Source of the DNA: Escherichia phage SP22
DNA: 64,000 nt
Direction: 5' to 3' (one strand)
Sequence record: LC519489.1
Shown here: in pieces, positions 8,140-58,869 of the stretch
Layout: the number at the start of each line of letters is the position of its first letter
Numbering within the stretch: position 1 is the first letter of the stretch
The notes under the pieces: generated by a model
The model's input: the letters and a program-made list of their open reading frames with translations, nothing else
Databases searched by the model: none
Told to the model about the DNA's origin: nothing
Made by a program: the position numbers and the translations under genes

Positions 8140-8231
8140 TTGACTCTTTGAACGGGGTTATCTAGTATTTGCATCAACGGGGAGGGAATGACCTTCCCCA
8201 CTAAATAAAGTCCTAAACTGGAGATTCAAAA
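8140..8231 (+). promoter_or_regulatory. cassette type A copy 1: promoter (-35 ttgact 8140-8145, -10 tagtat 8163-8168) + stem-loop ggggagggaatgaccttcccc (8179-8199) + conserved leader ...cctaaactggagattcaaaa-ATG
   Basis: 17-bp spacing; hairpin and leader repeated 7 times in window. Confidence 0.65.
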
Positions 8232-8612
8232 ATGGCATACCGTGCACCTAAATTCATCAACAAAGACAACTTTCGCAACGCACTGGAGAAGTCACTTGAT
8301 GAGAATTTTAAAGGTAACGTTATTGTTGTTCACTCGTTCAATTTCAAGTATGATATTAACGGGAATAAAATCAACCATTACACGGCGACAATGCTAGATG
8401 GTACTCTTTCAAGTGAAAAAGCCATTTTACATGCACTTGCTGGACGTGGTAAAAACCTGATAAGATGCGATAAGAGACGTTATCAGGGTGGCGCATATGG
8501 TTACGATGATGCTGTTTATCATCTTGAAAATATGGGCTATCAAGTAGAAAAAGCTGGAGTGTCTCAAATAATCGGTAGTGATGGTTATGTAACAATCTTC
8601 AAAATTAACTGA
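8232..8612 (+). CDS. hypothetical protein (hyperplastic early region)
   Basis: ORF directly after conserved leader with GGAG SD. Confidence 0.55.
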   Translation: MAYRAPKFINKDNFRNALEKSLDENFKGNVIVVHSFNFKYDINGNKINHYTATMLDGTLSSEKAILHALAGRGKNLIRCDKRRYQGGAYGYDDAVYHLENMGYQVEKAGVSQIIGSDGYVTIFKIN

Positions 8613-9702: not shown

Positions 9703-9791
9703 CACTGATTTTTAGATAGATTAAATTACACATCAACGGGGAGGCAATAAACACCCCACTAAATAAAGTCCTTAAACTAGGAGATTCTAAA
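9699..9791 (+). promoter_or_regulatory. cassette type A copy 2: -35 ttgaca 9699-9704, -10 taaatt 9722-9727, variant hairpin 9738-9757
   Basis: TTGACA-17-TAAATT then caacggggaggcaataaacacccc and conserved leader. Confidence 0.6.
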
Positions 9792-10064
9792 ATGTATACT
9801 ACTAACAACGGTCGCACTTTAAATGTCACTCTACGTCACTATGTAGACGGTGTGATGCACTTTGAGGATTTACAGGCTGAGCAACATATCTTAGATTGGC
9901 AAGTCGCAGGACTCCAAAAAACTGCTACCGGATACGGCAAAAAGATTCCAACTAGCTGGAAAGTATACTGTGAAGGACGTTTGCGCAGAATTTATCAGGA
10001 TGTATGTAGCAATAGCACATCAAGTTACATCATAGTAAAAGGTAAAAAACTGCATTTAGTATAA
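9792..10064 (+). CDS. hypothetical protein
   Basis: ORF after cassette. Confidence 0.5.
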   Translation: MYTTNNGRTLNVTLRHYVDGVMHFEDLQAEQHILDWQVAGLQKTATGYGKKIPTSWKVYCEGRLRRIYQDVCSNSTSSYIIVKGKKLHLV

Positions 10065-10562: not shown

Positions 10563-10655
10563 TTGACACTGATTTTTAGATAGATTAAATTACACATCAA
10601 CGGGGAGGGAATGACCTTCCCCACTAAGTAAAGTCCTTAAACTAGGAGATTCAAA
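10563..10655 (+). promoter_or_regulatory. cassette type A copy 3: -35 ttgaca 10563-10568, -10 taaatt 10586-10591, hairpin 10602-10622
   Basis: identical architecture to copy 2. Confidence 0.65.
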
Positions 10656-10853
10656 ATGGCTATTATCAACGGTTTAACCATTGAAACCACGCACATCAAA
10701 GACATTAAAGTTGGTGATGTAGTTCTTTCCCACGGCGTAGAAAAAACAGTCACTGCAAAGGATATCAAAGATGATTCTTTCATGGGTAGAACTCTCTTCG
10801 GTGATTCTTATTGCTTAGGTTATCTTGCAGTTTTAAAAGTTGTCAAAAATTAA
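10656..10853 (+). CDS. hypothetical small protein
   Basis: ORF after cassette. Confidence 0.5.
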   Translation: MAIINGLTIETTHIKDIKVGDVVLSHGVEKTVTAKDIKDDSFMGRTLFGDSYCLGYLAVLKVVKN

Positions 10854-10946: not shown

Positions 10947-11489
10947 ATGAAATGCTTTCACGGTACTACTCAAGAAAACTTTATCAACCTGATTAATAAC
11001 GGTGATAAACCATCAGGTGTATGGAATTGTTCGGATATGGACGGCAATTTTTACGTGTACCCAGAAAATAAACTCTATGGTGATGATGAGGAAGAGATAG
11101 CATCGGAAGGTATCCAGCAAGCTCTAGGAAATGCCACTATCACGGCAGCTTTTCAGATGAAAACTCAAAATATTGTTATCTTAGAACTTGACATTCCAGA
11201 GGATGAGCTAAATGATGATTATTCTTGTGATAACATGTCAAATATAGCAAGCTTTACAGAGTACTTTGATGTAAATTGGATTAAAAAGGTCTATACAACA
11301 GAGTTCAATGCTATGTATTCACCTTTTTGTCTCCCTTCACTGGATAACCCAAATTTAAATTATCTTGATGAAACATTGGAGCTACTTGCTAAAAGTATCC
11401 AACAATCCGACAGTATTCAGGTTTTTTGTGACATCATGGATACACTGACAGAAAACATTGTAGAGAGTGATTTAAAGGTCTTTTTCTAA
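10947..11489 (+). CDS. hypothetical acidic protein
   Basis: ORF after cassette. Confidence 0.5.
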   Translation: MKCFHGTTQENFINLINNGDKPSGVWNCSDMDGNFYVYPENKLYGDDEEEIASEGIQQALGNATITAAFQMKTQNIVILELDIPEDELNDDYSCDNMSNIASFTEYFDVNWIKKVYTTEFNAMYSPFCLPSLDNPNLNYLDETLELLAKSIQQSDSIQVFCDIMDTLTENIVESDLKVFF

Positions 11490-11523
11490 AAACCTATACA
11501 TTCACCTTATAAACACTGATTAA

Positions 11524-11545
11524 CCCCTTACAGGGGCTTTTAGAG
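11524..11545 (+). terminator. hairpin ccccttacagggg + ctttt
   Basis: inverted repeat and T-run. Confidence 0.45.
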
Positions 11546-11555
11546 GGCTTAAATC

Positions 11556-11789
11556 ATGCTTACAACCATTTATCTCATCCTTTCCATTTGTAACGGCCAT
11601 TCATGTGACTTTAAAGGGCTTGAAGAGTTTACAGGAAGTAAAGAAAATGCTATTCAAGTTTGCCAGATAGCAAGACAAGACTACCCCGCCAGTGATGATA
11701 TACAATGTTACTTTAAGACAGAAGATGACGAAGGAATCTATTTCGACAGTGTCGATGGTCAATATGAAATTATCATTGAAAAAGACTAG
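11556..11789 (+). CDS. hypothetical small protein
   Basis: ORF track. Confidence 0.4.
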   Translation: MLTTIYLILSICNGHSCDFKGLEEFTGSKENAIQVCQIARQDYPASDDIQCYFKTEDDEGIYFDSVDGQYEIIIEKD

Positions 11790-11882
11790 ACAAGCCTGAT
11801 AAAAGTCTGTAAATTATCAATCAACGGGGAGGGAATGACCTTCCCCACTAAGTAAAGTCCTTAAACTAGGAGATTCCAAAAA
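11787..11882 (+). promoter_or_regulatory. cassette type A copy 4: -35-like tagaca 11787-11792, -10 taaatt 11810-11815, hairpin 11826-11846
   Basis: 17-bp spacing; hairpin and leader conserved. Confidence 0.55.
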
Positions 11883-12131
11883 ATGTATACTAAAACTCAA
11901 CTAAAAAACATGGTTAGCAATGGCTTAATGGATGAAGTCTATAAAGAGTGTAGACGCTACGGGGAAATTAAGGATAAGACTAGTTATGAGTATACCCACA
12001 CAATAGACTTTAAAACCAATGAGAAGAGGACTGACCTTGTTACTGTAATAGTGATTGAGTATAAACGAATTATTTGGACCTTTGAGCTAGTAAAAGGTGA
12101 GTGCACAGAGATAGAATATAAAGACGCTTAA
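11883..12131 (+). CDS. hypothetical small protein
   Basis: ORF after cassette. Confidence 0.5.
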   Translation: MYTKTQLKNMVSNGLMDEVYKECRRYGEIKDKTSYEYTHTIDFKTNEKRTDLVTVIVIEYKRIIWTFELVKGECTEIEYKDA

Positions 12132-12686: not shown

Positions 12687-12779
12687 TTGCAAAGGCAAAT
12701 CAAAACAAGTATAGTACTAATCAACGGGGAGGGAATGACCTTCCCCACTAAGTAAAGTCCTTAAACTAGGAGATTCAAA
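12687..12779 (+). promoter_or_regulatory. cassette type A copy 5: -35 ttgcaa 12687-12692, -10 tatagt 12710-12715, hairpin 12726-12746
   Basis: 17-bp spacing, conserved hairpin and leader. Confidence 0.6.
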
Positions 12780-13310
12780 ATGAACAAGTTTCAAGCTATC
12801 AACTACATTCGCTCATCTAACGTTATGACTAAACCCGTTAAAGATACCTTCGAATTTCGTTGCAACGGTGTACACTTTGCAACTATCACTAAATCAGAAA
12901 ACGGGGCTTATTATATACATCGTCGTAATGTTTCTACTGTTGTAGTATCTCACTTTATGCAAGCTGTAGCAGAACTGTTACCGTTATTCTTAGGTATTTA
13001 CTTAGATGAGTGTAAAAACGTTCGCAACCACGTTAAAGACCTTTTAAATAGTTATAAAATGGCTTATGAACGTTCTATCAAGAATCTTAACAAGTTCTAT
13101 AAAGCTCCTGAAAACACCGTATCAATAGCTTATGATGTAAGCGGTGAAATGGTCAACCTCTCCAATGTAGAACAAATTTGCCTTTATGATTTACGTCCTA
13201 GCGGTTATTCTAAGACTCTCGGTGAAGGCTTATCCTTCAATATCAAGAACTTAGAAAAAACTTTAAAAGATATTGAAAAAGATATTGACGAGACAATCAA
13301 AAGTCTGTAA
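12780..13310 (+). CDS. hypothetical protein
   Basis: ORF after cassette. Confidence 0.5.
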   Translation: MNKFQAINYIRSSNVMTKPVKDTFEFRCNGVHFATITKSENGAYYIHRRNVSTVVVSHFMQAVAELLPLFLGIYLDECKNVRNHVKDLLNSYKMAYERSIKNLNKFYKAPENTVSIAYDVSGEMVNLSNVEQICLYDLRPSGYSKTLGEGLSFNIKNLEKTLKDIEKDIDETIKSL

Positions 13311-13377
13311 ATTGTCAATCAACGGGGAGGGATTAACCTTCCCACTAAGTAAAGTCCTTAAACTAGGAGATTCAAAA
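13285..13377 (+). promoter_or_regulatory. cassette type A copy 6: -35 ttgacg 13285-13290, -10 taaatt 13308-13313, variant hairpin 13324-13343
   Basis: promoter embedded in 3' end of upstream ORF. Confidence 0.55.
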
Positions 13378-13641
13378 ATGGAACACGTAGAATTAACCAC
13401 ACTATTGCAGATTGCAACTAACAAAGAAGACGTAGCGTTGTTTCACCGTATCGAAAGTGATTTGTTCAATGGTGAAATCATTAAAGAATCTTACGAAGTT
13501 GTCGGATTCAAAGATGGTAAAGCATTTGGCTTTTTTGACCTCGACAAAAGCAAAGCGGTTACAATGTACGATGTTCTATCTTGTGAAATTCTGACAAAAT
13601 ACAACGAAAAAAGGCTTGCAACCTACGCCAATATGCAGTAA
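13378..13641 (+). CDS. hypothetical small protein (start set at ATG after conserved leader; track ORF 13273 is an artefactual upstream extension)
   Basis: MEHVELT start directly follows ggagattcaaaa. Confidence 0.5.
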   Translation: MEHVELTTLLQIATNKEDVALFHRIESDLFNGEIIKESYEVVGFKDGKAFGFFDLDKSKAVTMYDVLSCEILTKYNEKRLATYANMQ

Positions 13642-13708
13642 ATTACTAATCAACGGGGAGGGAATGACCTTCCCACTAAACAAAGTCCTAAACTGGAGAA
13701 TCTAAATT
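13616..13708 (+). promoter_or_regulatory. cassette type A copy 7: -35 ttgcaa 13616-13621, -10 taaatt 13639-13644, hairpin 13654-13673
   Basis: 17-bp spacing, conserved hairpin. Confidence 0.55.
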
Positions 13709-13957
13709 ATGTCAACTATCCGCGTAACTGTTAATGCTTATGGCTGCCACAAACTTGATGCAAAATTCGATATCGGTGGAACAGATAACACCTTTGACCT
13801 TATCAAAATGCTGATTCAGCAGGTGATACCAGATTATAACCCTACTGATGACTTCTGGAAAGATGCCGTAAAAGAAGCCATAAACGAGGAATCTCACTAC
13901 CATTATTGGGGTGACTTGATTGTCTCTCTATACTACAGCAAACAAGGCTACAACTAA
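13709..13957 (+). CDS. hypothetical small protein
   Basis: ORF after cassette. Confidence 0.5.
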   Translation: MSTIRVTVNAYGCHKLDAKFDIGGTDNTFDLIKMLIQQVIPDYNPTDDFWKDAVKEAINEESHYHYWGDLIVSLYYSKQGYN

Positions 13958-13965
13958 TCGACGCA

Positions 13966-14019
13966 ACGGGGCTAAATAGCCCCAGATACCTTTACAGCCC
14001 CTTAAATGGGGCTTTTTTA
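13966..14019 (+). terminator. tandem hairpins (ggggctaaatagcccc; gccccttaaatggggc + tttttt) ending the + strand early block
   Basis: inverted repeats and U-run. Confidence 0.65.
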
Positions 14020-14029
14020 CGTCTATCAA

Positions 14030-15560
14030 ATCCTTATACAATCCCTTTCCTTTCCTTTCCAGAATCTTATCAGACCTTAAAAGCAATAACTCTATAGTCT
14101 ACTCTATAACCTTTTATCAAATCAACTTAAATATAAGCCCATAACCCGAAAGGGAAGGGCAACCCCTTAAACGCTCTATAACGCTCTATAACAGCCTTAT
14201 CAACCTAACTTAAGCAATCATATTAACCCACTCTAAAAAGCCCTTTATAGAGCTTCCCAGAGCCTTAGAAGAATCTTATAAGGGTGTAAGCTTTATCATC
14301 TCGTTAGTATTCTTGTGAACTACTAAAAAGGGCTTGGTAGTTCCTTTAAAGTATGTTATAGGGGCTATAAAGTTACTCAAAAGTTACGTAAATGCTAGCC
14401 CCCTTAACATTTTCTTAACAATTTCTTAACAAACCCTACATAGTTATGCTTGTTAGAGACTTGTTAGCCTCTTGTTAAATCTCTGTTAAGACCACGTAAA
14501 AGCCTTGTAAGAACCTTTGACATAGCCTTTAAAGCCCCTGTAAAGCCCTATAAAGAGGTATCTGTACAGTTGGGGTGTAATTACTAGGAAGAGGCTTAAA
14601 AGGGCTTACAAGGAGCTATAGAGAGCTTTTAAGAGGTATGTTTAGAGAATCACTAAGAAAGAGAGGGAACGATAAGAAAAGAGATAGTGACCTTGTTAAC
14701 AGCTTGTTAAAAAGATTAAACACTTGTTAGAAACTTGTTAATTATCTTAACAAAATAACTCTTAAAAATTAACTTGTTAGCTCTTGTTAGTCATCTGTTA
14801 AGCATCTGTAAAGACTATTCAGCACTTGTTAAGAAACTGTTAAGCTCTTGTTAGTTCTGTTAAGAATCTGTTAAGACCTTTGAAGAGTTGTTAAGAAGAT
14901 GTGAGAACTGTTAAGAGATTGTTAAGGATATTTTAAAATTTTGCAAAGGGGGTGTTACAGGGATGTTAAGGGCTACCAAGCAGATATACATCTTCTACAG
15001 ATATTTTTCAGTTCCTTCAAAGACCCTAAAAATGACTTGACAGTCCTATTTTATAAAAATTTTAAAATTCTGAATAATTACCTAGACAGTCTTTTAAAAA
15101 TACAGGCATAAACAGGCTTATAAGATACCTTGTTAGTACCGTGTTAGACCTTGTGAGATAAGGTCTGTAAAGATATTCCTGTTAAGTTTGTTAAAACAGT
15201 CTATATAGAGGCTTAGTAATACCTAGTGAACACCTATAGAGGGTATCATAGCTGACATAATGGGTTACTGTTAAGTAACACAGGTAACCTAGAGATTAAG
15301 AGGTGTATAGGAGCTTCTAAGAGGGTGTAGAGGTATGGTTAAGGTGATTGTATAGGTTGTTAAGAAGGCTTGTTAGAAGAGTGTTTAGAAGGGCTATACA
15401 GAGGGGCTATTAAGACCACTAGATAGTTACTAAGATACTATATAGTACTATATAACTATATATAGAGAGTAAGATTAAGAAGGTTGTTAAGAAGGATAGA
15501 TATTTTATTCACATATGATGGTGACCCATAGGTTGGGACAACCGATAAAATTTTATAAAA
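14030..15560. repeat. ORF-free 1.5-kb region with dense short dispersed repeats, consensus (C)TTGTTA(A/G) or CTGTTAAG, in both orientations (25 or more copies, densest 14400-14930)
   Basis: no ORF of 60 aa or more in any frame; motif counted by eye; flanked by convergent terminators. Confidence 0.7.
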
Positions 15561-15598
15561 ATTAAAAAGCCCCCAATTAAGGAGGCTCTTAAGATATT

Positions 15599-16192
15599 TT
15601 AAACCAGTGTTTCCAGAACTGTCTTCAGTGATGACTTGGTTGTCTGATAAAAATGAGTAAATCCATTGTTATTATCGAATACCTGCATCATGATATCATC
15701 ACCCTTGATTGGGTAAACTCGGATATCGTAGTGAAAACCATTAAAGACACAAGAACCACTACAGAATGCTCTAAAGTCATCCACTGAGATATACTCTTCA
15801 TGACCTGTGATTTTTATACAAACACCTTTACTCGGTCTCTTAGGGTTGATATCTTCCATCACAGACATACTCTGTCCACCAAGAGATACCATAGTGACCA
15901 CTTTACGGTTCTTCTGTCTAAAGTACATCTTAACTTTCTGTAAAGTGTCTTCATAGAACGGATAAGACCTTTCTACAAAGATTCCTTCAAGTGGCTCTTT
16001 ACCATTTTCAACTTCTCTGTTATGCCGTACTGCAAAGATAATTTGTTGGAACCAGTCAAAATTTTCTTCGGAGAGTCCTTCCCGAATATCATTCCAGTCA
16101 AGGACTAGATAGTTACCTTCAACTTTTTTTAAGTTATCTTTTTTCATATCTATCACACCGTTATCGTAAAACTTGGTAAGCTGGAACTGCAA
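15599..16192 (-). CDS. hypothetical protein
   Basis: ORF track. Confidence 0.45.
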   Translation of the reverse strand: MQFQLTKFYDNGVIDMKKDNLKKVEGNYLVLDWNDIREGLSEENFDWFQQIIFAVRHNREVENGKEPLEGIFVERSYPFYEDTLQKVKMYFRQKNRKVVTMVSLGGQSMSVMEDINPKRPSKGVCIKITGHEEYISVDDFRAFCSGSCVFNGFHYDIRVYPIKGDDIMMQVFDNNNGFTHFYQTTKSSLKTVLETLV

Positions 16193-32195: not shown

Positions 32196-32396
32196 ATGAG
32201 CGAGACCGTTTATAAAGAACTTTACGAAGCTAACAAGAAGCTAGAATTTATGCAGAACACTATCATGGCAATTGCAGACAGATTATCTGTAGCAACAGGT
32301 ATTGATATTCAAGAAGCGTCTATGGATGCACTTCTTGATGCTGTTGATGCAAAGTTCGAAGTTAAGAAAGAAGAGACTGCTACAGACTCTGAATAA
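32196..32396 (+). CDS. hypothetical small acidic protein preceding the terminase gene
   Basis: ORF with SD ggagaaa. Confidence 0.45.
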   Translation: MSETVYKELYEANKKLEFMQNTIMAIADRLSVATGIDIQEASMDALLDAVDAKFEVKKEETATDSE

Positions 32397-32417
32397 TTCT
32401 ATTTGCGGAGGTGCTTA

Positions 32418-34019
32418 ATGGACTTAAATGCTGTTAAGCAGAAGCGAGTGGAAGATGTTAGGAAAGTCCTAGCTGGAGAGTTGGGGCTTTCTGATGAAGT
32501 AAAAGAAATTATCAAATCATTCGGTAAAGACCCCTCTAAATTCCTTCCAACTCAAATTCTGACTTTATTAAGATACACACCAGACCAAGTTAGACTTATC
32601 TTCAAATTGATGACTGATAAGAACTATGTAGCCCCTCAGCCGGGTTCTCAAGAGGTCTTTTTAAATACTAATGCTGACTTGGTTCTCTATGGTGGTGCTG
32701 CTGGTGCTGGTAAGACTGCTGCATTGTTAATGGACTCTTTAAGGTTTATTGAAGACCCTAACTATAATGCTGTATATTTCCGTCGAAATACAACACAGTT
32801 ACAAGGTGGTTTATGGCCTGCTGCAAAGAAACTATTTGGTAAGTTTGGTGGCGTTCCTCACGAGCAGAAGATGACTATCACATTCCCTTCTGGGGCAACT
32901 ATCAAGTTCACCTACCTAGAACTTGAAAAGCACGCTGAAGGTCATCAGGGTATTGAGTACTCAGCTATCTACTTTGACGAAGGTACGCACTTCTCTGCTT
33001 CACAGATTTCATACCTACAGACTCGTCTGCGTTCTGGTGCTGAAGGTGATTCATACATGAAGATTTCTATGAACCCAGATAGAGACCATTTCATTTACGA
33101 TTGGGTAGAACCATTCTTAGATGAAGAAGGTTACCCAGACCCTGAAAAGTGTGGTCGTATCCGTTGGTATGTTATGAACGATGGTGTGATGGTTTCTGAT
33201 TGGGAGAGAGACAAGATTCTTGAAATGTTTCCTCTTGAGATTCCTCAGACATACACCTTCATCTCTGGTACGATTGATGATAACCCAATTCTTGACTTCT
33301 TAGAACCTAAATATCGTGGTAAGTTGGAAAACAACACACCTGTAAACGTTGCAAGACTTCGTTTCGGTAACTGGAAGGCTCGTGCAGAAGGTTCAAACTA
33401 TTGGCAAAGACAATGGTGTGAAATTGTTGATTCACTCCCAGAAGATGTATTCGATGTCAGAGCATGGGACTTAGCAGCAACTTTACCATCTGAGATTAAC
33501 CCTAATCCAGACTGGACAGCAGGTGTTAAGATGGGTAAATCTAAAAAAGACGGTTGCTATTATATCATTGATGTAGTAAGATTTAGAGATAGACCCTCTG
33601 GAGTCGAAACACAAATTAATTTGACTGCTGAAAGTGACGGTAAGCGAACTGGTATTTTTATCCCTCAAGACCCAGGCGCTGCTGGTAAATCCTACGCAAC
33701 ATCCCTCATCAGGAAACTTGCCGAGAAAGGTTATCGAGCAAGAGCTAAACCAACAAATAAAGATAAAGTTACCCGATTTGCGGGGTTTTCTGCTGCTTCT
33801 GAAGCTGGACTTGTAAAAGTCTTGAGAGGTAGTTGGAATGAAGCTTACTTCCAAGAACTTGAAGGCTTTTGTGGTGATGGTAAAACTAAAGATGACCAAG
33901 TGGATGCTACCAGTGATGCTTTCAACAGTCTTAACGAAGTTAAATTATTCAAGCCACCATCAATGGGCGCTCACACAGACTTAGTGAGAGGAAACCCATA
34001 TGAGGGGCTTAGACGTTGA
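32418..34019 (+). CDS. terL: terminase large subunit
   Basis: Walker A-like YGGAAGAGKT and Walker B-like IYFDEG in N-terminal ATPase region, acidic C-terminal nuclease-like region; start set at ATG after SD ggagg; followed by portal candidate. Confidence 0.75.
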   Translation: MDLNAVKQKRVEDVRKVLAGELGLSDEVKEIIKSFGKDPSKFLPTQILTLLRYTPDQVRLIFKLMTDKNYVAPQPGSQEVFLNTNADLVLYGGAAGAGKTAALLMDSLRFIEDPNYNAVYFRRNTTQLQGGLWPAAKKLFGKFGGVPHEQKMTITFPSGATIKFTYLELEKHAEGHQGIEYSAIYFDEGTHFSASQISYLQTRLRSGAEGDSYMKISMNPDRDHFIYDWVEPFLDEEGYPDPEKCGRIRWYVMNDGVMVSDWERDKILEMFPLEIPQTYTFISGTIDDNPILDFLEPKYRGKLENNTPVNVARLRFGNWKARAEGSNYWQRQWCEIVDSLPEDVFDVRAWDLAATLPSEINPNPDWTAGVKMGKSKKDGCYYIIDVVRFRDRPSGVETQINLTAESDGKRTGIFIPQDPGAAGKSYATSLIRKLAEKGYRARAKPTNKDKVTRFAGFSAASEAGLVKVLRGSWNEAYFQELEGFCGDGKTKDDQVDATSDAFNSLNEVKLFKPPSMGAHTDLVRGNPYEGLRR

Positions 34020-58539: not shown

Positions 58540-58869
58540 TTAATCTGCCAACCTTAAATTGAAATTAACACCAAATTTTTCACACACTTCCAACATATAC
58601 TCAAGAGAGACATTCCCAGTGAGGTGGATTATGTTGGATACACGAGCTTGAGAGATACCACAAATTTTAGCGACTTGTTCTTGAGAAAGACCTCTGGATT
58701 TAATCTCTCTCTTAAAACGATGTGCAACGAAGTCTCTCATTTCGTCTACATCCATTGGACAAATATAACTCTCCATTTCAGCCTCTCTATCAGCCTCCCA
58801 ATCATCTTGTGGAGCATAAGGGTCAAAAACCTCATTCATCTTTCTTCTTCCGTTTACGTGAAGTATCAA
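58540..58869 (-). CDS. helix-turn-helix DNA-binding protein (putative transcriptional regulator)
   Basis: LSQEQVAKICGISQARVSNI resembles an XRE-type HTH. Confidence 0.5.
   Translation of the reverse strand: MILHVNGRRKMNEVFDPYAPQDDWEADREAEMESYICPMDVDEMRDFVAHRFKREIKSRGLSQEQVAKICGISQARVSNIIHLTGNVSLEYMLEVCEKFGVNFNLRLAD

Follow-up and report, generated by a model that had tools for sequence, protein, structure and literature searches.

The terminal repeat of phage T7 measures 160 bp, and the short repeats that stand out in this phage (SRL/SRR) lie mostly beside it. The T7 Pac signal is composed of PacB, which is recognized by the small terminase gp18, and of PacC, and PhageTerm users have placed Felix O1-like phages, with direct terminal repeats (DTRs) of 581-613 bp, together with T7. 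The locus that we describe here in Escherichia phage SP22 resembles the T7/T3 junction by its unique, non-permuted ends, by a repeat of some hundreds of bp that occurs singly at each concatemer junction, and by a gene-free junction with short repeats, where the terminase would have two fixed sites to cut and the repeat would have to be duplicated. However, the repeat itself is here filled with about 25 elements in helical phase, and SP22 is a myovirus with a T4-type TerL, in the annotation of which no small terminase was found.

Other phages also carry motif copies near the packaging cut, which bind a small terminase or a host bending protein and thereby assemble a bent or wrapped structure by which the nuclease is positioned: the R sites of lambda cosB with IHF, the P1 pac hexamers and SPP1 pacL/pacR comprise 3-7 copies, in systems with cos or headful packaging. 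We propose that the SP22 array acts likewise, but SP22 is a DTR phage with about 25 copies, and a claim of membership among these multi-site terminase regions would require a binding protein. A structural analogue of the array is parC of plasmid R1, in which ParR binds cooperatively to ten 11-bp iterons arranged in two clusters. Many 11-bp direct repeats and a higher-order complex would be common to both, whereas the phage is lytic, has no partition genes and carries its array at DNA ends; nothing here supports the centromere-like site put forward in an initial annotation of this DNA. Finally, the injection-stop region of T5 is likewise a gene-free, repeat-rich segment in a terminal repeat, which in T5 is about 10 kb long and carries genes; to our knowledge, T5 is the only phage in which two-step DNA transfer has been documented.

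The short DTR itself was already known. The phased array, the conservation of its cores and the length steps of about 11 or 22 bp are new, and we found no description of such an array in the Felix O1, wV8 and UAB_Phi87 papers, in the Felixounavirus comparative paper, in the Bas63 cryo-EM paper, or by text searches for the motif.

Genome Ends and Terminal Repeat

The window, i.e., the whole stretch of 64,000 nucleotides that was analyzed (LC519489.1), is a Felixounavirus genome opened at rIIA. The initial annotation had drawn attention to positions 14030-15560 as a region without any open reading frame (ORF) of 60 aa or more, bracketed by terminators, and both observations were borne out. The longest ORF (14941-15111, 56 aa, TTG start) is frame-shifted in relatives, and a coding role was dropped; the homologous stretch is devoid of any ORF of 40 aa or more in 11 of 18 relatives. 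Terminator hairpins were found at 13996-14013 (plus strand) and 15590-15565 (minus strand), and both terminators are also annotated in phage AYO145A. The features of the region and its borders are the following:

13996-14019, plus strand: Rho-independent terminator closing the plus-strand gene block (GC-rich hairpin and T run, found by scan)
14030-14397, no strand: left flank, non-coding unique sequence before the right-end DTR copy, with degenerate 10-11-bp units (CTCTATA four times, CTTATCA and similar)
14398-14977, no strand: short DTR of 580 bp, present once in the rIIA-opened assembly and, by homology with relatives, at both ends of virion DNA
14404-14432, minus strand: three inverted TGTTAA elements 11 bp apart (TAACA cores at 14405, 14416 and 14427)
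14449-14491, plus strand: four direct CTTGTTA(A/G) at exact 11-bp spacing (cores at 14451, 14462, 14473 and 14484)
14498-14690, no strand: central DTR segment without TGTTA, with CTnTAAAG-type 10-11-bp units (CTTGTAAG, CTTTAAAG, CTGTAAAG, CTATAAAG, CTTAAAAG and others)
14692-14970, plus strand: main array of 17 direct and 2 inverted TGTTA(A/G) on one helix face, ending 9 nt from the right physical end
14978-14990, no strand: conserved junction AAGCAGATATACA just past the right DTR boundary, a candidate cleavage or recognition context
14978-15560, no strand: right flank, unique non-coding leader after the left-end DTR copy, with scattered TGTTA, TATAGAG and AT-rich tracts
15565-15590, minus strand: Rho-independent terminator closing the minus-strand gene block (10-pair hairpin and T run)

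As the genes on the left are on the plus strand and those on the right on the minus strand, the convergent transcription noted initially holds for the circular or concatemeric map. It does not hold for virion DNA, on which the gene blocks run outward to the two ends, with the terminator at 13996-14019 at the right-hand genome end and that at 15565-15590 at the left-hand end. Scanned against Rfam at E up to 1, the interval 13500-16000 matched nothing beyond a Phe-leader below threshold, on a terminator, and thus contains no known RNA. The promoter search yielded 13 weak sigma-70-like matches (6.9 ± 2.7 expected), none of them convincing, and no obvious promoter cluster.

By homology, the physical ends of SP22 DNA are placed at 14398 and 14977. 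The record starts or ends of at least 10 independently sequenced relatives, from several laboratories, coincide with these two positions: among them, the first base of the Pr103Blw, E9, D4, I14.1, CRP22 and HP1 records aligns with 14398, and the last base of those of Pr103Blw, CRP22, E9, pEP20 and Hafnia phage SPARTY aligns with 14977. This exact homology points to ends that are unique, not permuted and fixed to the base. That both ends share a few hundred bp is indicated by E9, whose first 580 bp are identical to its last 580 bp, and by the terminal repeats annotated in the Pr103Blw and HP1 records (581 and 570 bp, respectively). One search with the region returned 280 places in 252 records and, among the matches listed in this search and a second one, nine records (E9, Pr103Blw, D4, I14.1, CRP22, BPS15Q2, ECP2307, REP10 and HP1) contained two matching places each. 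This homology predicts that the unique part of virion DNA begins with the 583 bp to the right of the DTR and finishes with the 368 bp to the left of it.

Published mapping was compared with these positions. In UAB_Phi87, Bal31/SpeI digestion and run-off mapping gave a DTR of 608 bp (PMC4837284). The SpeI fragment of this phage that spans the region measures 6568 bp, against 6533 bp expected from the published Bal31-sensitive fragments (PMC4837284), and only this region-spanning fragment fits the mapping. PhageTerm-reported DTRs are 581 bp long in Pr103Blw and 613 bp in Ro111lw, and short DTRs have also been reported for Kolesnikvirus. Thus, the genome-end candidate of the initial annotation proved right, since the physical ends and the 580-bp DTR fall inside the region. 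The same annotation held that nothing in the sequence decides between its candidates, yet the location is settled by comparison with relatives, in which the array sits at the physical ends. The junction string AAGCAGATATACA is invariant in every column across 20 Felixounavirus sequences and also follows the boundary directly in Erwinia phage phiEa104.

Layout, Phasing and Conservation of the Array

A count of at least 25 closely spaced copies of a short motif in both orientations had been proposed, and it withstood comparison with shuffled sequence: the region contains 37 TGTTA cores (30 on the plus strand and 7 on the minus strand), against 5.5 ± 2.3 in 1000 dinucleotide shuffles. YTGTTAR was found 30 times in the region (2.0 ± 1.4 in shuffles, maximum 9) and 23 times in its 580-bp core (1.0 ± 1.0 in shuffles), and 13 copies of CTTGTTA lie in the region, compared to 7 in the remaining 62 kb. 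Gaps between neighbors are mostly 9-11, 20 or 31 bp. The DTR holds 26 of the 37 cores, and it is packed with about 25 TGTTA(A/G) elements, the outermost of which are aimed at each end. Over the whole genome of E9, densities above 2 sites per 300 bp occur in the terminal bins only. The best period of the array is 10.3-10.4 bp, a fit that 0 of 2000 random placements matched in the window and in HP1 alike, and with this spacing the TGTTA elements would lie on one face of the helix.

The inverted trio begins 7 nt from the left physical end and faces outward, a layout also present in HP1 and phiEa104. At the cluster of four direct copies, for which Tandem Repeats Finder gave a period of 11, relatives have gained or lost whole 11-bp units. 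The same program found periods of 10 and 11 in the central segment (at 14526-14555); this segment contains conserved islands in divergent relatives, and insertions of 10, 19-21 and 23 bp in relatives map to 14612, 14654 and 14684 within it. The main array has a period of 10.3 bp, with a power of 11.5 out of 17. In all three genera examined, an outward-pointing element is located 7-9 nt from both DNA tips.

The self-similarity at 10-11 bp runs through the whole 1.5 kb. Autocorrelation in the left flank peaked at lags 10, 21 and 11, against multiples of 3 in the coding flanks, and in the right flank at lags 10-12. The left flank contains 4 of the 9 CTCTATA of the whole window, and its counterpart in the Erwinia phage has another motif, CTTCTAA. 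In the right flank, TGTTA occurs at 15131, 15142, 15180, 15189, 15269, 15358, 15371 and 15485, TAACA at 15276, and TATAGAG at 15204, 15235 and 15461. Also, the orientation of CTCTATA/TATAGAG flips across the region, with small counts.

The statistics on conservation and length come from related sequences that are mutually non-independent: core columns were 91.4% identical against 73.5% for the other columns (six relatives at ~80% identity; 0 of 5000 circular shifts), and the DTR lengths of 30 relatives fell into classes separated by 11.0 bp (matched by 0 of 5000 random sets). The array is retained in Mooglevirus and in the Kolesnikvirus of Erwinia and Hafnia, and it spans at least three Ounavirinae genera. 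Whether the host is Escherichia, Salmonella, Citrobacter, Erwinia or Hafnia, the phages keep TGTTAA, while their flank motifs vary. Positions 14864-14990 are the sole part of the region that aligns by BLAST to the Erwinia and Hafnia Kolesnikvirus, and phiEa104 has a 440-bp DTR with 21 sites within an ORF-free gap of 1430 bp. Steps in DTR length are of about 11 or 22 bp only, and the indels among relatives measure only 1, 10-11, 19-23 or 48 bp. Quantized lengths are partial evidence for selection on phase, because replication slippage alone yields 11-bp indels in an 11-bp array; the non-repeat inserts of 19-23 bp argue for such a selection.

Candidate Binders of the Array

Our preferred reading, to which we give a probability of about 60%, is that this region corresponds to the concatemer junction in a Felix O1-like myophage and that the DTR is a phased protein-binding platform for end formation and packaging. 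A sequence-specific protein would bind the array head to tail in a cooperative manner, and would coat or wrap the DTR from one boundary to the other. This nucleoprotein structure may mark the junction for the terminase, which would cut at both DTR boundaries; strand displacement, a mechanism proposed for T7-type phages, would then duplicate the DTR, and bound sites would be present on each mature end, at most about 10 bp from its tip. The binder could be an unrecognized phage packaging protein or the host regulator ArcA-P. That a sequence-specific DNA-binding protein recognizes an array of sites here had been suggested initially, and this idea gains indirect support from the phasing, the purifying selection on the cores and the indels quantized at ~11 bp. 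Two points count against the preferred reading: T7, the model of this packaging class, has no such dense array as pac elements, and our search of the phage proteome yielded no binder.

The TerL of SP22 (32403-34019) presents Terminase_6N/6C domains of the T4 type. A grouping of TerL with DTR-type terminases has been reported (PMC4837284). No small terminase was found with PHROGs, Pfam, the PDB sequence search, source names or the Pharokka annotation; a Pharokka-style annotation of E9 lists none, and the Felix O1 paper likewise reports none. Several candidates were considered and set aside: a 66-aa acidic ORF upstream of TerL, DUF7217 and DUF7338, the 82-aa and 197-aa genes adjoining the gap, and a 166-aa protein that belongs to the virion collar (PDB 9mt4/9c39) bear no DNA-binding or terminase signature. 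A single helix-turn-helix protein is annotated, of XRE type (58540-58869), and it is unlikely to be a universal binder because it is absent from the Kolesnikvirus that keep the motif (tblastn). A search for a phage-encoded ArcA/OmpR homolog in E9 and the window (phmmer --max, with a manually entered ArcA query) gave no match.

The alternative that survives best concerns the identity of the binder and leaves the location of the ends unchanged: tentatively, the TGTTAA elements may be sites for ArcA-P, of the OmpR/PhoB family. It is conceivable, though rather doubtful, that the DTR is an ArcA-P super-array of ~25 elements, which exceeds any ArcA site on the chromosome at least fivefold in size and has its strongest boxes at most 35 bp from the tip. 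ArcA-P might then serve as an architectural factor at the ends, couple end biology to the anaerobic state, or be titrated off the host regulon. In Escherichia coli, an ArcA box consists of two direct-repeat elements 11 bp apart, centre to centre, and most ArcA sites have 3-5 elements at 11 or 22 bp, to which binding is cooperative (Park et al., 2013). The array has in common with such sites the TGTTAA core, direct repeats 11 bp (sometimes 22 bp) apart and more than two elements. Nevertheless, sites on the chromosome comprise 2-5 elements separated by A+T-rich spacers and are located at promoters, whereas in the phage array the elements number about 25, the spacers are mixed, G is preferred after TGTTAA, and the location is at genome ends with no promoter nearby.

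We rebuilt an ArcA position weight matrix (PWM) from the 115 boxes of Table S3 of Park et al. (2013), and the published scores were reproduced. The window contains 10 boxes of at least 15 bits, and the seven of them that lie in the DTR equal or surpass the average score of genuine ArcA boxes. The DTR holds 17 boxes of at least 9.1 bits, and direct-repeat boxes (at least 9 bits, 11 bp) are present there as well as in HP1, phiEa104 and E9. The top two boxes of the window (22.8 and 22.6 bits), located 7-35 bp from the left end, outscore all the boxes of Table S3. In E9, the DTR copies hold 12 of the 16 boxes of at least 15 bits and all 4 of at least 18 bits; the HP1 DTR reaches 23.6 bits at position 7, and that of phiEa104 up to 20.5 bits, a box located 8 nt from its boundary scoring 20.4 bits. 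The consensus repeats of PhoP, PhoB, CpxR, OmpR and TorR were absent from the window. The persistence of TGTTAA across phages of five host genera, with varying flank motifs, also favors ArcA-P. Escherichia, Salmonella, Citrobacter, Erwinia and Hafnia are all known to carry ArcA. Also, in a Salmonella RB-TnSeq screen, arcB disruption was scored as conferring resistance to Felix O1.

However, in the part of the supplement of this screen that we searched, no arcA row was attributable to Felix O1, the sole arcA row belonging to the Br60 sheet, and arcB was common to Felix O1 and a T5-like phage, the authors tying much of the shared network to RpoS. The spacers also count against ArcA-P: G occupies position 4 in 41% of array spacers against 8% in chromosomal ArcA boxes (Fisher p = 1e-7), and their A+T content is 53% against 83%, A+T-rich spacers being found only at the three left-end elements. 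Thus, as its spacers differ from those of ArcA boxes, the array has its own TGTTAAG signature. Felix O1-type phages are usually grown in standard broth, in which ArcA is mostly unphosphorylated, and this routine growth also argues against ArcA-P. Moreover, 11-bp iterons of TGTGTTAATTT are present in unrelated viral contigs, so that the TGTTAA/11-bp grammar is not unique to ArcA, and, as ArcA was put forward because of the match, a look-elsewhere discount applies. Of the decoy site proposed initially, only a specific form survives, that of ArcA-P-like sites, because the elements resemble host ArcA-P boxes.

Alternative Functions and Implications

A replication origin, in which a phage initiator would recognize the phased repeats, with unwinding at AT-rich tracts (about 14930-14945 and 15040-15100), appears improbable. 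A gene-free gap with short direct and inverted repeats beside AT-rich DNA is typical of origins, and at least two unrelated viral contigs (L184 and L145) have opposed sets of TGTTAA-type 11-bp repeats about a central spacer and resemble iteron origins; this spacer is AT-rich in L145, and a large ORF near the L184 repeats is helicase-like by our own reading only. However, the array matches the DTR boundaries to the base and faces outward at both of them. The flanking proteins are without any Pfam domain and match PHROGs of unknown function only, with no initiator domain among them, and the primase/helicase and polymerase genes are distant. Usual iterons are present in 3-7 copies of 17-22 bp, from which about 25 units of 7-9 bp differ. 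DnaA boxes numbered 15 in the window (21 ± 4.5 expected), with one one-mismatch match in the region, and the IHF consensus was not enriched. With DnaA boxes not enriched and no adjacent initiator gene, the origin listed in the initial annotation is thus left without positive support.

It is also quite improbable that the array serves in end protection or entry control, through a protein that would block RecBCD on the incoming tips or pause DNA transfer, as in the T5 injection-stop region. The outward element 7-9 nt from the tip at both ends in three genera would suit such a role, as would the clustering of the motif at the ends only, but about 25 sites over 580 bp far exceed what tip capping needs, we found no candidate for an ejected DNA-binding protein, and there is no evidence of two-step DNA transfer in Felix O1-like phages. 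Finally, a slippage-prone, degenerate 11-bp satellite, kept only because concatemer formation needs a repeat of a certain length and with no protein-binding role of its own, would account for the 10-11-bp self-similarity over the whole 1.5 kb and for the many indels of single repeat units, but this disfavored reading is very improbable given cores far better conserved than spacers, a core that persists in genera whose DTRs cease to align, a conserved boundary orientation pattern, and non-repeat inserts that are also about two helical turns long.

The reading of the DTR as a binding platform for packaging bears on how phages that are widely used in Salmonella typing and biocontrol recognize and cut their own DNA. 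The end positions are transferable to assemblies opened at rIIA, and for annotation the gene-free gap corresponds to the terminal repeat, the small ORFs called there not being conserved. The conserved phased array is usable as bait for the recognition protein, and the phasing rule, i.e., indels of whole helical turns, is open to engineering tests. If the binder were indeed ArcA-P, the array would constitute a new link between phage and host, from oxygen sensing to genome ends, or a case of a phage titrating a host regulator. Through a host two-component regulator, gut phages would then link their packaging, end protection or replication with anaerobiosis, or their replicated ends would strip ArcA-P from its regulon.

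Coding content of the gap and position of the genome ends

As stated in the initial annotation, no reading frame of 60 aa or more lies inside the gene-free stretch at 14030-15560 (the gap). The longest ORF (14941-15111, 56 aa, TTG start) is broken by frame shifts in relatives, and the homologous stretch has no ORF of at least 40 aa in 11 of 18 relatives, so the gap is non-coding. Its counterpart in the records of Felix O1, AYO145A and garuso either bears no annotation or is marked only with terminators and 'repeat_region' features. The two flanking gene blocks do end in terminators that bracket the region, as had been proposed:

13996-14013, + strand: terminator-like hairpin ending the flanking + gene block
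15590-15565, - strand: terminator-like hairpin ending the flanking - gene block

At 80-95% identity, the gap region had matches in 256 phage records. Felixounavirus, the Felix O1-like myophages that infect Escherichia, Salmonella, Shigella and Citrobacter, accounts for nearly all of them. The window opens at rIIA, a record start adopted by convention from Felix O1. Four lines of evidence agree in placing the physical genome ends inside the gap. The record of Pr103Blw (MW481326), arranged by PhageTerm, has a 581-bp short direct terminal repeat annotated at both ends, and its base 1 aligns to 14398. The records of E9 (PP886229.1), D4, I14.1, CRP22 and Mooglevirus HP1 start at this same base. The final base aligns with 14977 in the records of Pr103Blw, CRP22 and E9, and in those of pEP20 and Hafnia phage SPARTY when reversed. 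In the complete E9 record, the first 580 bp are exactly the last 580 bp, and 581 bp are not identical. Lastly, in mapping of UAB_Phi87, two SpeI fragments (4322 and 2819 bp) disappeared on Bal31 digestion, and a repeat of 608 bp was obtained by run-off sequencing; the region-spanning SpeI fragment of the deposited record measures 6568 bp versus 6533 bp expected (4322 + 2819 - 608), and the ends placed from these fragments coincide with the 14398-14977 homologue, allowing for indels. Thus, 14398-14977 is the terminal repeat (DTR, 580 bp), present as one collapsed copy in the SP22 assembly, and the relatives' genomes bear out the genome end that had been listed among the candidates. The transcription described as convergent is so only in the circular or concatemeric map, as on virion DNA the gene blocks head outward to the two ends. 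The location of the ends is already known biology: short terminal repeats of 581-613 bp have been published for Felixounavirus.

Several other features of these records were observed. In UAB_Phi87 (JN225449.1; L006 ~11150-11770), the repeat is 614 bp by boundary homology versus 608 bp in the paper, and the record is 87,603 bp long versus 87,669 bp published. Short direct elements lie at the boundaries, GCTA(G)CC in SP22 (14394-14400 and 14972-14977) and GCCACT in Erwinia phages (L013, 2165-2171 and 2599-2604); the reported cut precedes the left-boundary element but follows the one on the right, which may hint at the cleavage site. Automatic annotation of E9 calls several 'hypothetical proteins' of 30-55 aa in the terminal repeat and its flanks:

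PP886229.1 241-333, 544-639, 889-990, 990-1157, 86655-86817, 87358-87450: automatic calls

Judged by comparison, these look spurious, since no ORF of at least 40 aa recurs at a fixed position in the homologous gap of the window and 18 relatives. Staphylococcus phage SA1 (GU169904.1, 147 kb) contains Felix O1-like DNA at 135884-136464 and 89837-90163; its 92% nucleotide and 97% protein identity suggest that this record is a chimeric or contaminated assembly. Also, a leader of about 70 bp occurs in six copies 5' of small + strand genes:

8173-8240, 9722-9801, 10586-10667, 11809-11885, 12708-12782, 13307-13384: leader copies upstream of + genes

In every copy, a conserved hairpin GGGGAGGGAATGACCTTCCCC is followed by ACTAAGTAAAGTCCTTAAACTAGGAGATTCAAAAATG, which includes the ribosome-binding site and start codon. 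The leaders may be RNA processing, stability or translation elements, and probably overlap the direct repeats given in the Felix O1 paper.

Anatomy, phasing and conservation of the array

The reported short motif is genuine and well in excess of chance. The gap holds 37 TGTTA cores (30 on +, 7 on -) versus 5.5 ± 2.3 in 1000 dinucleotide-preserving shuffles, and 30 YTGTTAR sites versus 2.0 ± 1.4; CTTGTTA occurs 13 times there versus 7 in the other 62 kb of the window. The DTR contains 26 of the 37 cores, arranged as follows:

14405, 14416, 14427: three inverted cores, 11-bp spacing, from 7 nt off the left end
14451-14484: first cluster, four direct elements, 11-bp spacing
Central segment, 190 bp: without TGTTA, with CTnTAAAG-type units of 10-11 bp
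From 14692, stopping 9 nt short of the right end: main array, 17 direct and 2 inverted elements

The outermost elements face the DNA tip at each end, and the tips are alike (left GCCCCCTTAACAT; right, on the opposite strand, GGTAGCCCTTAACAT). Phasing of the direct elements has a period of 10.3-10.4 bp, with a power matched by 0 of 2000 random placements. Self-similarity appears at lags of 10, 11, 21-22 and 31 in all three gap segments, unlike the coding flanks, where it appears at multiples of 3. Only the terminal bins of the complete E9 genome exceed 2 sites per 300 bp, which speaks against a general operator for a promoter-acting transcription factor.

Among 30 distinct relatives, which are kin sequences and not independent samples, DTR lengths were 567-570, 579-582, 591-593, 601-603, 612-614, 623, 633, 638 and 658 bp, a periodicity of 11.0 bp whose power was matched by 0 of 5000 random length sets. 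Indels in pairwise DTR alignments measured only 1, 10-11, 19-23 or 48 bp; some are one repeat unit gained or lost, others are inserts of unrelated sequence, about two helical turns long. Helical phase seems to be preserved across the DTR, since slippage accounts for the single-unit indels but not for the unrelated inserts. Among the inserts, a 22-23-bp palindrome ATTGGTATTGTTACCAATCCCT was found in different relatives at four positions and in both orientations (window-equivalent positions):

14750 (L017), 14775 (L006), 14833 (L030), 14654 (L020, reverse): palindrome inserts; L052: 48-bp variant

It adds about two helical turns every time, and resembles a very small unit that moves or is copied.

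Across six Mooglevirus- and Suspvirus-like relatives with ~80% identity, columns within TGTTA cores reach 91.4% identity versus 73.5% for all other DTR columns (0 of 5000 circular shifts). This contrast, together with the keeping of the array across genera, contradicts a functionless satellite. The HP1 repeat has 570 bp and 23 sites with a period of 10.4. In Kolesnikvirus of Erwinia and Hafnia, an ORF-free gap of 1430 bp persists, with a 440-bp repeat delimited by the Prophecy record start and the SPARTY record end at homologous boundaries; the 21 sites of this repeat are mostly TGTTAAGA. The only part of the gap still alignable to them (14864-14990) crosses the right boundary, with the same junction string AAGCAGATATAC; their left flank has a distinct repeat, CTTCTAA. 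The literature searched contains no description of a phased array of TGTTAA elements, of its conservation among Ounavirinae, of DTR lengths quantised at 11 bp or of a resemblance to ArcA boxes.

Candidate ligands and alternative functions

From site grammar, we predict with considerable doubt that the array binds the phosphorylated host regulator ArcA (ArcA-P). An ArcA box consists of two elements 11 bp apart, centre to centre, and in most ArcA sites 3-5 elements are spaced by 11 or 22 bp and bound cooperatively (Park et al., 2013); TGTTAA direct repeats at 11-bp spacing follow this grammar. With a PWM rebuilt from 115 boxes (Table S3 of Park et al., 2013; published scores matched within ~0.7 bit), 7 of the 10 boxes of at least 15 bits in the 64-kb window fell in the DTR. 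No Table S3 box scores as high as the top pair, at 22.8 and 22.6 bits, which lies 7-35 bp from the left end. Of the 16 E9 boxes that reach ≥15 bits, 12 are in the repeat copies, as are all four of ≥18 bits; HP1 and phiEa104 are similar (top scores 23.6 and 20.5 bits), and the window lacks the consensus repeats of five further OmpR-family regulators. Against ArcA-P, spacer A+T is 53% in the phage versus 83% in ArcA boxes, G follows TGTTAA in 41% versus 8% (p = 1e-7), and unrelated viral contigs also carry TGTGTTAATTT 11-bp iterons. No phage-encoded ArcA-like protein was found.

In a Salmonella RB-TnSeq screen (PMC8744999), resistance to Felix O1 was scored for arcB; however, this effect is shared with a T5-like phage, the authors tie much of the shared network to RpoS, and the supplement rows searched hold no arcA row attributable to the Felix O1 list. 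In rows of its Dataset S4, disruption of himA, himD (IHF) and arcB is reported to give Felix O1 resistance, and all three also score for a T5-like phage. The IHF consensus has a single match, 14024-14036, at the gap edge.

TGTTAA-type repeats at 11-bp spacing were also observed in unrelated IMG/VR contigs (L184 12650-12900, L145 6700-6950, L143 14050-14250). In both L184 and L145, a central spacer (AT-rich in L145) is flanked by opposed sets of 4-5 TGTGTTAATTT-type repeats, and these arrangements look like iteron origins; a 719-aa ORF near the L184 repeats may be helicase-like. Tandem units are longer in L143.

End protection or entry control by a tip-bound protein would suit the outward-facing elements at the two tips, though not an array as extensive as 25 sites. 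An iteron-type replication origin in the gap has neither an adjacent initiator nor an enrichment of DnaA boxes, and leaves the exact stop of the array at the DTR boundaries unexplained.

Terminase genes and a proposed concatemer junction

The SP22 large terminase is of T4 type. Searches with PHROGs, Pfam and PDB sequences, source names and Pharokka-style annotation revealed no small terminase, and the Felix O1 paper concurs. The sole annotated helix-turn-helix protein is absent from Kolesnikvirus. A conserved acidic helical protein occupies the customary small-terminase gene position:

32196-32396, + strand: 66-aa protein, phrog_4397, no known function
32403-34019, + strand: large terminase, TTG start 6 nt after the 66-aa ORF

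The 66-aa protein has no DNA-binding signature.

The array is terminal, phased, conserved and unique. We propose that a sequence-specific protein would bind it head to tail on one DNA face and fold the repeat into a nucleoprotein structure marking the concatemer junction. T7 packages via PacB, bound by its small terminase, and PacC. In SP22, the terminase would cut at both DTR boundaries, and the repeat would then be duplicated as T7-type phages do.
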